Origin: Hemiscyllium ocellatum | Taxonomy: Eukaryota | Direction: 5' to 3' | DNA length: 64,000 nt | Assembly (NCBI RefSeq): GCF_020745735.1 | Contig: NC_083408.1 | Location: 93,216,484-93,280,483, forward strand | Shown here: positions 28,191 to 32,929 of the stretch, one piece after another | Layout of the letters: every line of letters starts with the position of its first letter | How positions within the stretch are numbered: the stretch's first letter is position 1 | Translations under genes and position numbers: made by a program | The notes under the pieces: generated by a model | Databases searched by the model: none | What the model was told of the DNA's origin: nothing | Seen by the model: only the letters and a program-made list of their open reading frames with translations

Positions 28191-29802
28191 CCATCTGAAG
28201 TCAACTCTATTTAGACAGCATAACCCCTTTCCAATATCTTTGTAATTTGAAAGGTAAAGTTTCAGCAAATGTTTGGCCATTTTAAGAACTTTGCTTAGGT
28301 CACCTACACATCGTGTAGTAGTCTTTTTGTAAATCCTATAGTTTCAGCTCATTCAATGTACTCATTTGTGATATAAAACATGTTTTTAATAACACAATAC
28401 TAGAAGAGAACTAGAGTGCCACACTCCCAAAGCAGGTAATTTGTTTCCACAAAGTCACATTGCATGAACTCCCCCAGGTAATAATGGTCAAAAAATGTAA
28501 TTCCCATTGTCCCTGAGCTTCAAGCAGCATTTAAGCTGGGGGAGTTTGAATACCACTGAGAAGGGACCTTTCCCTTCCCCATCATTGACTATTAATGGAT
28601 ATAAAATCTAGTCCACAATCCTGAGGCCATTATCAACATGTATTTGCATTTGAATCTGCTCGGATGTTGTTGGTTAAAGAACATTTTCAAAGCTGCTGTT
28701 GCATTTCCAAAAGCAAGTCATTCTTTTAACCCAGGGACTTTTTTATGATCTCTCTATTCACTGAGTAATTCAAATTCTATTGCCTTAATTTACCATCAAA
28801 GAATATTCTACAGACATAACCCCTAAAACAAGTCATTTTACTTTAAACACTTTTGTGACAGAAATAAACATTTTATTTTCACATTGTTAGAATTTTATTA
28901 AATTTATTATTCATGTATTAATTCATAAAACACCAGGATTAATATAAGAATATCCGGTCCACTGGAATGGTCCATCTTTTAGAATGACTTATTGGAGGAA
29001 ATATTGACTTTGCACTGTGATGTATGATTGCAAATCAACAGCCTGTGACATCCGTGTCAAGCAATAACCATGTTAAACAGAAAGAATTTCACCATCTCCC
29101 TTTGACATTTAATAGCATCATCATTTTTGAACTCCCGACAATCAACATCTTGTGACCAAAATCTAAATACTGACATGTCAAAGTTGTGACTGAAAGAATG
29201 GGCCAGAGGAGATGAATTCTGTGGCAAATGCCCACCTCCTGTCCCCTGAATACCTGATAGGAAACAGGTGTTGGAGGGGATGTTAGAATATTCTGTTTGT
29301 CATGCGAGCAGCTCAGCAGCATCAATGGCAAAACAGCCCACTGTTTGGCATTCCTTCCACCCTTTCAACACACACATCTTTCATCACTGATGTACAATGC
29401 AACAATGTGCACCATATACAAGATGCAGAGCTCCAATTCACCAAGGCTCCCTAAACAGCATCATAAGACCAGAATATCATAAGAGCAGGAATTCAGCCCA
29501 TTGAGTGTGTTCCAGTATTCAATGAGATCATGAATGATCTGATAATCCTCAACCCCATTTTTCTGCCTTTACCCCATCACCCTTGATTCTTTAACTGATC
29601 AAAAGTCTGTTTCAGCCCTGAATATGTTCAGTGAGCCTTCCTTAACAGCATTTTAGTAAATAATTCCACTGCCTCATTATCCTCTGAGAGAACAAAATCC
29701 TCCTTATATCTGTCTTTAATATATTTCCTCTAATTCTGAGGTTATGCCCTATGATCCTAAACTCTCCCAAAAGGGGAAACAATCTACATGCACCCATCCT
29801 GT

Positions 29803-30387
29803 TGAAGATGTAGATCCCAGGCGGGACCTCTCAGTTTCGACATCAGTCAAAAGAATCATCAGGAATACCGCCTGTTTAAAGCAAGGTTATCAGTTTAATA
29901 GAATTAGGCAGCCTGGCCCTGTTTTGTCCAGCAACACAGAGGTTAAAACTTCTGTGTTCTGTGGCGAAGTTGCACCAGGCTGCCTAATTTTATTAAACTG
30001 ATAACCTTGCTTTAAACAGACCCTGTACCTGATTATTCTTTTGACTGATCTCGAAACCAAGAGGTCCCACCTGGGATCTACATTTTCATATGGTACCGTG
30101 ACTTGTGGTTCGACACGGACAGATCGTGGACAGTGGTGTAAGAGCTTGAGTCCCTCGCTATTGAGTGTTGAGAAATTTGGCCAGCCAGACGTGGGTATTT
30201 TAAGTCCATTTGGCTTTTTTCGCATTCAAGTAGTGGCTGAATTGACCCCTTGCTGTCTATTGTCCTAGTCCAGCCCGAAAAGGATAAATCTTGGCAAGGG
30301 GCGAGGAAGAGAAAGAGAGAGAAAGGTCAAGGACTCTTACAAAGTTGAGAAAACTGAGAGGTTTCGTCTGGGACCTGCAGATCTTCG
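29803..30387 (+). mobile_element. 585-bp non-coding LTR/ERV-like mini-element: foldback TG..CA unit, tRNA-His-like PBS, purine tract, terminal repeat
   Basis: TSD CTGT at 29799-29802 and 30388-30391. Ends TGAAGA / TCTTCG. 114-bp inverted arms at 29803-29916 and 29975-30088 (12 mismatches, no indels). PBS-like at 30091; purine run 30303-30326; 30351-30387 complementary to the first ~35 nt. Confidence 0.75.
30091..30113 (+). promoter_or_regulatory. Primer-binding site complementary to the tRNA-His(GUG) 3' end
   Basis: TGGTACCGTGACTTG matches the canonical His PBS TGGTGCCGTGACTCG at 13/15 and lies 2 nt after the ...TTTTCA end. Complementarity extends to TTCGA allowing G-U pairs and one bulge. 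Confidence 0.7.
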
Positions 30388-32929
30388 CTGTATACAAAGA
30401 ATCTTGTATGTTTCAATATGGTTGCCCTACATACACATAACATACCCAGAAGAACAAAGGAGCAGATGACTGGCACGTATAAATTTCCCTCTAAAGCATG
30501 TGTCATCCTGGTTTGGAACAATATTACTGCTCCTTCACTGAAAGTGGTCAAAATTCTGGAATTCCCTTCTAACAGCATTGTAGGTGCACCTATTCTCCAA
30601 ACACTACAATGGTTTACTAAGGCTGCGTAGCATCATCATCTCCAGGTGAATTAGATATAGATAATAATGCTGGCCTAGTCAATGATGCCCATATTCTATC
30701 ACTGAACGAATAATAAATTTTTAAAAATTAGAAGTGGCACAGCTAAGGGCAGATGTGCTGTAAAGCCTGTGCTTAATTACCAGTTGGGGTAGGAATGAGC
30801 TGTTGTATGTGCAAGGACGTTTTAGCTGTGTATCGTGTGACATGTTGGGTTGTGACTGTTGTTCCACTACATTGATATTGAAGGCCAATTGCAGACTACC
30901 AATGTTTGAGCATGATGGGTGTGACAGCAACTGCAGATGTGGGCAGCATGCAGCCACTGCTCATGAGATGTTGGTGCTAAGTATCCATGGTGGAGGTCCA
31001 GAGCTGGAATTACTAAATACCTGAGCTGACTTTCAATTCTCAACACAAAGATTGCATTCAACAAGTGGGAGAATGGGAGCCTGCTTGTTCATGAGGTGAG
31101 ATTAAATAATCACGAGAGTCATAATACATGTCAACAGGCCTAGGACTTGCTTGGAAAGTGTGTCTTTTTGGTTTTGATGTTCAGAAAAGCTGCACTCGAT
31201 GCCTCACATAATTAGACCAAATTTCTTGCTGTAACCCACTTTGTTCAGGGTCCGAGAGGATTCTATCCTCTGTTCATGATGTGCAAACCAATAAATAGCT
31301 ATTTTTAATTTTCTCAAAAGAAATGTTTCATCAAAGTGGAATTGGGAGAAACATACAGAATCTTCAGGTGAACATCTTTTAGTAATCTGCTACTATAAAC
31401 TCTACTCCCACCATCCATACGCACCTATGCTTGCAAGATTAAATATAAGTAAGTACACTTGAAAGTCATTGTTTAAAAAGTGAGTGAAATGCAGAATGTA
31501 TCTGAAAACAAAACTGAGGCAACTTGCAGTATGAAACTGTACTGATATTCCTATAATACTTCAGAGCTAGCGAGCACTGAACTTCCAACAGATACCCTTT
31601 TCCCTTCATTCTGGCAATGATTGTAGTAGATCTTTATTGAAACTCCATAATCAGACAGGTCGACTTTCATGTGCTACTCTTCGGTTACCTTCTCAAATAA
31701 ATTTGTAAATTGGATCATCTGTCTCATGTCACTCCAGGTATTTATTAATACTTCAGTTTAATTATGTAACACTACATCTAATTCATGCTGTCTTCCTTAG
31801 CACTTTAGCATCATGCAAAAAAATCCAATAACTTTCCCTGCTCCACTAGGTTTCCTTCTAACGTACTCCAACTGTTCTTCTAATCTCCTTAACAATTCTG
31901 TTGATTTCTTCTTAATGGCCCCTAATTGTACTCCTAATCTTCACTGACAATGCTAAAGTTTCACTTCACTTTCCTAACCTCTTCTTATTTCCTCCCAATC
32001 TTCCAACACGTCAGTTAATTGCCCCAATACTCTCCCATACCTATTCTATTATTCTCATTAAATCTGCCAAAGTACTTCACCCTACTCTCTCGCTCTGACC
32101 GTAGTCAAGTATGAGTTGTTGTGAAATATATTCTATGGAAATTAGTTTATGATATAGTAACTATGGGTAATTTTAAACCGTGTCTCTCTCCAACTGATCT
32201 ATGTCATCCAGTGTAATAAGCTTCAATGATTACTGCCAAAATAACTGTGCCAACAGCAGCACTTGTCAATTTGTCATGCTTTTATGGGTAATAGATTGTT
32301 CTGCAAGAGGTCATAAAACACAACGCTTCAATGATAACAAATATAAACTTCACAAGCCTGGAATTGATTTTGTGCATTGTTAATAGATGACCCTTGTAAC
32401 AACTCTGTTAAAATACTGGATAGAGAAATCTCGGATGATGCACTGACATAGTAATATTGCAATGTCATTTCCAAGGTTCATCATCCTGGAAATTTGTTCA
32501 ACAGGTGACCCAGGATATTCCTCTAGGATGAGATAAAGAAGGCAGAGATATTACTAAAGCTGATGTCCTAATGGCGTAAGAGTACCACTGTGACATGTTT
32601 GATTGTTCCAGCCTTCTGCATGTTGTAATGTGGAAGCCTAACTTGAGGACTTTAAGGCCATGCACGAGTGTGTAAAGCAGTAGACATACTGGGCCTAGCT
32701 AATAGAAGAGTAAACACACAAAGGGTGGTATCAGAGCCACAGAAGAAGCTATTATTATGTCTGGGACTTGTCCTTAGGCAGTGAAGCCTCCAATGTAAAT
32801 GCTCCAGATGGAGCTCTCATGCTCGCCAGATCTTTTTCCTTTTTCTTTCTTTTTATTTTCCACTTGCTCCAGTTTTTATTTCACTGCCCCATGCCCCAGC
32901 TTCTCAATTTTTAAAGAACACTAGTTGGA

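Follow-up and report, generated by a model that had tools for sequence, protein, structure and literature searches.

An endogenous retrovirus remnant with its 5′ LTR replaced by a fold-back of R-U5, probably derived from self-primed minus-strand strong-stop DNA

The window analysed here is a stretch of 64,000 nucleotides of Hemiscyllium ocellatum DNA. It contains a unit of 585 bp (29803-30387) with CTGT on both sides, at 29799-29802 and 30388-30391, read on the plus strand. As originally predicted, these are the two copies of a 4-bp target site duplication (TSD), the length typical of the parent endogenous retrovirus (ERV) family described below. The right end of the unit is CG, not CA. The left and right flanks belong to one host repeat and adjoin each other in 5 of 15 host loci; its identity as CR1, which is presumed from a protein motif, found no support in a Pfam search of 18 host-repeat segments (no matches). 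With one CTGT removed, the site is about 5 nt shorter than the host-repeat copies in this species. The TSD stands, because contigs of organisms B and C have three additional bases at this apparently short site. Independent short-read contigs of organism A show no differences to the unit, and contigs of B and C cover both junctions at approximately 94% identity, with no single contig covering the whole unit. Since the contigs of A match and those of B and C cover both junctions, the insertion is real, old and shared.

The left half of the unit is an inverted repeat (29803-30088) with 142-nt arms that are 83% complementary and a folding z of -16.1. The near-palindromic first unit of 286 nt that had been described is therefore present, but it is not an LTR in its own right: it consists of the final 173 nt of a 590-nt LTR in fold-back form. 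The first part (29803-29975, minus strand) is a copy of those 173 nt, the predicted R-U5 of the parent. It begins at the U5 att end and has the extent expected for minus-strand strong-stop DNA; nucleotides 1-171 of the unit matched the ends of conventional LTRs on the minus strand, with up to 84% identity. Within it, 29916-29975 (minus strand) forms a hairpin at the predicted 5′ end of R, and the fold-back takes place at its last base, 29975, which lies 30-31 nt past the parent TATA box. The second part (29976-30088, plus strand) is the copied-back arm, the last 113 nt of the LTR. It contains the rest of R with ATTAAA, then U5 and the CA end, and runs into the primer binding site (PBS). In place of a 5′ LTR the unit thus carries the final 173 bases of the LTR, folded back. 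The copied-back arm is 88% identical to the other arm (103 of 117 columns), and the two are sisters in a tree with support of 97/91. This identity is comparable to that of 5′/3′ LTR pairs of the family (83-89%, four pairs), and fits a palindrome formed at the time of integration.

The palindrome is followed by TA (30089-30090) and a PBS (30091-30103, plus strand) in which 12 of 13 positions agree with the tRNA-His complement, in accord with the original prediction, and the same site follows conventional 5′ LTRs. The assignment is supported by tRNA-His(GTG), which was found at all four loci checked from 95 pattern matches. Next comes the 5′ leader of the parent ERV (30104-30351, plus strand), which aligns colinearly with the leaders of loci L002 and L005 and has a splice-donor-like motif near 30191. 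The purine tract noted earlier as 24 nt lying before the tail is there, but it is a GA-rich tract of 29 nt (30298-30326) that aligns with the L002 and L005 leaders and so belongs to the 5′ leader. Its candidacy as the polypurine tract (PPT) was rejected on this alignment, the family PPT being a different motif, found directly before the 3′ LTR and seen before eight LTRs. The match to the L002 and L005 leaders stops at 30351, where the last 37 nt of a U5 begin (30351-30387, plus strand). This tail, correctly recognised as a diverged copy of the end of the first unit, is joined to the leader by a deletion with an overlap of 1-3 nt, and is taken as the remnant of the 3′ LTR. In a multiple alignment it is identical to the two arms at 23 and 19 of 36 columns. 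The lack of a recognisable open reading frame and the raised CpG content also held: the longest stop-free stretch is 111 codons, and the observed/expected CpG ratio is 0.54, compared with 0.12 and 0.25 in the 2-kb flanks. A U3 promoter, a PPT and a 3′ R are all missing from the unit, which, as judged from these absent parts, would be unable to replicate.

Conventional members of the parent family share the PBS and leader seen in the window, which follow LTRs of approximately 590 bp, and two direct LTRs were found in 7 of 15 ten-kb stretches. Thirteen of 39 stop-free segments matched Pfam families, namely reverse transcriptase (RT), RNase H, integrase, MLVIN_C or a TM heptad family. The RT piece is closest to MLV/XMRV RT (E 3e-24, compared with 2e-15 for foamy virus), and the parent carries a second RNase H, an MLV-type integrase C-terminus and an env TM piece. 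In PDB the integrase piece matched foamy integrase only, and weakly. On these sequence matches the parent is assigned to the class I (gamma/epsilon-like) ERVs. TSDs of the family are 4 bp, being exact in seven and with one mismatch in three of the 10 loci, out of 29, in which both outer ends were seen. The search for coding elements with the same termini and PBS led to a conventional two-LTR ERV, and the predicted integrase origin, His PBS and ERV1 relationship are borne out. By its sequence, the unit is a dead remnant of such an ordinary class I ERV. It differs from a class I provirus or solo LTR, with which the parent family shares TG..CA LTRs, 4-bp TSD, His PBS, PPT, MLV-like RT, MLVIN_C and the TM heptad piece, in that an inverted R-U5 stands in place of U3, U5 forms both ends, and the coding region and the PPT have been lost together with almost the entire 3′ LTR.

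Several other features of the family were seen. Many LTRs (L044, L045, L048, L051, L052, L055, L056, L061-L064, L068, L076) have an internal U3 duplication of approximately 90 nt at reference positions 277-366, which lengthens them to about 680 bp. Loci L008, L009, L011, L012, L014-L017, L029 and L030 are clustered copies of one ERV locus, mostly at G000:C14:90.0-92.2 Mb; the cluster is probably a segmental or tandem duplication, and it inflates copy counts. In L008 a second LTR start lies about 850 nt away in the opposite orientation. Two partial LTR ends of different subtypes lie in tandem at L053:1399-1893. At L074:9140-9200 (G000:C14), a 3′ LTR has a short inverted stretch in U5, turning at GATTC/GAATC and followed by a normal U5 end, with the TSD intact.

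Among 40 scored of 927 candidates in the genome, the only full-length match to the 585 bp was the window itself, and the leader-to-U5 junction also had a single match. Of 30 loci that were fetched, two were the window and three were palindromes; the other 25 matched the right arm and mostly the leader. One site that at first appeared palindrome-like, C3:16475170, proved on alignment to be an ordinary LTR (L094). A search of Rfam gave no matches. The unit in the window is inert, old and single-copy. The proposal of a replicating non-autonomous parasite, for which full-length copies with differing TSDs were to be counted, has accordingly not survived: the unit is a rearranged conventional two-LTR provirus, and single-copy status and such a rearrangement were among the findings that the original prediction had named as counting against itself. 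The rearrangement envisaged there was a chance event, which does not hold, as the same-base fold-back is found in six loci from three LTR subtypes (see below). The view that the architecture is neither that of a provirus, nor of a TRIM, nor of a solo LTR was sound. TRIMs and other non-autonomous LTR elements are short and non-coding, with a PBS beside the terminal unit and a TSD. The unit shares all of these properties, but in place of two direct LTRs it has an inverted R-U5 on the left and 37 nt of U5 on the right; it has no promoter and no PPT before a 3′ LTR, and one match instead of several same-ended copies at different sites. Nor is it an ordinary or solo LTR, which is one U3-R-U5, whereas the unit has no U3 and has the PBS and leader inside.

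Palindromes with one and the same turn base were found at six loci: the window, L010, L020, L026, L041 and L085. Six is a lower bound, as tight patterns miss diverged or interrupted copies. A junction pattern found four of them. An inverted-motif pattern found five (none with the control), and a second such pattern found the same five together with three unrelated matches (1+1 with the control). The sixth, L085, is split by a 1-kb insertion. The flanks are not inverted and the TSDs are direct; they are exact 4-bp duplications in the window, L020, L026 and L041, and match at three of four positions in L085, L010 being truncated. Stand-alone palindromic units are about 289 bp long, with TG..CA ends and a 4-bp TSD, and the PBS and leader are kept in only one of the six loci, the window. 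At the left ends, the base at position 4 is U5-type in 5/5 palindromes, as opposed to U3-type in 22 of 23 printed LTR starts. A 31-nt R/U5 motif had 194 matches in the genome at two or fewer mismatches, of which the palindromes make up roughly 3%, both counts being lower bounds. At L086:7351-9383 (G000:C3), the L010 palindrome, its left arm cut short, lies 1.6 kb from a 5′-truncated ordinary LTR of the same subtype.

The palindromes turn at a motif of the GCGC type. A spacing of approximately 30-31 nt after a TATA box predicts an RNA start, and among 23 printed LTRs, with spacings of 25-37 nt allowed, the motif was called in 12 (no call in 11) and lay 30-31 nt after TATA in all 12. The turn point is therefore predicted, from TATA spacing, to be the 5′ end of the RNA. 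The 60 nt past it fold into a hairpin with a second GCGC at its foot. When minus-strand DNA of seven decayed natural LTRs was folded, the long hairpin formed in five and the 3′-terminal bases were paired in three (all four terminal bases in two, three of them in one further LTR). Of four RNA folds, only one was far beyond its shuffles. This unevenness of the hairpin among decayed copies weighs against the self-priming reading given below. The hairpin is followed by ATTAAA, with AATAAA at the same place in a related LTR (L115).

Ten palindrome arms were placed in a tree with 34 LTRs (44 rows, 118 columns), leaving out the window tail, the L010 right arm, the L085 distal piece, L051_1, L066_1 and L074_2. 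The panel was drawn from matches to two palindromes, and 22 of the 41 branches are open. The ten arms are interspersed with conventional LTRs that represent three U5 subtypes, and a single clade of palindrome arms was rejected (p-AU 5.3e-6). The palindromes therefore have several origins, in three LTR subtypes. In L026 the two arms differ at 14 U5-tip columns, and at 12-13 of these each arm has the letter of a different subtype; the columns form one adjacent block, and the subtypes were defined within this analysis. By these letters, the L026 arms point to two templates.

We think it probable that the palindromes are integrated products of self-primed minus-strand strong-stop DNA. Synthesis primed by tRNA-His would halt at the RNA 5′ end, the predicted GCGC 30-31 nt after TATA. 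The R hairpin would then pair the 3′ end of the minus strand with the second GCGC, allowing RT to copy back through U5 and into the tRNA. The PBS end of the resulting hairpin may anneal to a second minus strand, probably from a co-packaged genome, in place of plus-strand strong-stop DNA, and the outcome would be a linear DNA bounded on either side by a U5 att site. Integrase would insert this two-U5-ended DNA with a 4-bp TSD; insertion of the self-primed product by the viral integrase is likely. A later deletion would have joined the leader to the 3′ U5 tip. For the stand-alone palindromes there are two candidate origins: a pair of strong-stop DNAs may have primed on, or invaded, one another, or a provirus resembling that in the window may later have undergone U5-U5 recombination. 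In the window copy the PBS follows the copied arm and the other R is antisense to it, which is the orientation that self-priming predicts. At all six loci the extent appears to be that of a self-primed product, as would the turn point if the RNA starts at the GCGC; in the window the orientation agrees as well.

A precedent exists in HIV-1. According to the accessible text of PMC1919501 and PMC4668388, the 3′ end of its strong-stop DNA self-primes with the help of the TAR stem-loop, nucleocapsid suppresses this, and abortive products arise in vitro when the strong-stop DNA anneals intra- or intermolecularly. As is proposed here, a stem-loop in 5′ R brings about self-pairing of the strong-stop DNA 3′ end, which is then extended back towards the primer. 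The HIV-1 reaction as described in those texts is abortive and suppressed by nucleocapsid, whereas the predicted products of this class I ERV were integrated with a TSD in the germ line, and the product in the window ran on through the PBS into the leader. A literature search, in which subscription papers and older virology were thinly covered, found no report of integrated or germ-line self-primed strong-stop DNA, and the accessible parts of PMC13185573 and PMC12789967 added nothing on integrated products. Within this coverage the reaction was described only from work in vitro, which does not establish that integrated products are absent from print. Inverted terminal repeats and hairpin-type priming also occur in DIRS and Penelope-like elements (PMC3601003), but these lack a DDE integrase, whereas the parent here has one together with a tRNA PBS.

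Chromosomal template switching after integration is an unlikely source of the palindromes, though it accounts for some of their features. A replication fork in an ordinary LTR would switch template twice, first at a short terminal inverted repeat and then at the R hairpin, converting U3 into an inverted R-U5 with the TSD kept. The start and end of the family LTRs are indeed near-complementary over approximately 12 nt, the two-switch inversion within U5 at L074 indicates that other switches have taken place in a family LTR, and a plus-strand version of the scheme gives the observed orientation while preserving the TSD. However, both switches would be needed at the same bases in six loci, and the chromosome, unlike the RNA 5′ end, has nothing that would make synthesis stop at the hairpin foot. 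The five U5-type left ends and the absence of an inverted flank also argue against switching, as does the search for U3-side palindromes: the one pattern used found none, its two matches being L114, which is unrelated, and L115, an ordinary LTR. The two subtypes in the L026 arms would be left unexplained.

It is very improbable that the palindromes form a replicating non-autonomous family, or a palindromic-LTR subfamily with the 289-bp units as its solo copies. The six loci share their ends and turn point, and L010, L020 and L026 are mutually 88-91% alike, which speaks for such a family. Against this, the 585-bp unit is single-copy and without promoter, PPT or 3′ R, the palindromes are nested among conventional LTRs and not in one clade, and the approximately 5 kb around L010, L020, L026 and L041 contained no second LTR-family palindrome. 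A MITE-like palindromic family descended from a master copy was rejected on the same tree test and the finding of six copies. The stand-alone units, as palindromes with TG..CA ends and a 4-bp TSD, resemble MITEs and TG..CA DNA transposons such as Ginger; the units differ in consisting of retroviral R-U5, in having several origins and in showing no sign of amplification. Palindromes are also a known artefact of long-read sequencing, but a fold-back artefact of sequencing or assembly can be dismissed with near certainty, given the 12% divergence between the arms, the perfect match to the organism A contigs and the junctions covered in B and C.

If the palindromes are integrated strong-stop DNAs, self-primed or primed on one another, they may, as a more tentative and rather doubtful extension, belong to an unrecognised class of vertebrate retroviral insertions with two U5 ends, which would number a few percent of the LTRs in those families whose R begins with a hairpin. 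Self-priming is a standard reason given for nucleocapsid chaperoning and, in the accessible text of PMC1919501 and PMC4668388, is known in vitro as a dead end. Six germ-line insertions with one turn point, from three subtypes, suggest that it occurs in real replication and that its products can be integrated. Were the class to prove genuine, TAR-type self-priming would take place in vivo and yield integrase substrates, the insertions would locate the cap site of extinct viruses with single-base precision and record the use of both co-packaged genomes (L026), and MITE-like palindromes and hairpin RNAs could originate from retroviruses by this route. For repeat annotators there is also a caution, as some palindromic TG..CA 'MITEs' may be retroviral by-products.

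Two further observations were made in the course of the analysis. Other palindromic repeats of 160-220 nt are present at L005:1192-1353 and L023:2402-2623, one of them inside an LTR, and these short palindromes look like MITEs of unrelated families. L115:1443-2056, a solo LTR, comes from a family that is related but more distant; its ends, TATA region and R hairpin are the same, and AATAAA takes the place of ATTAAA.
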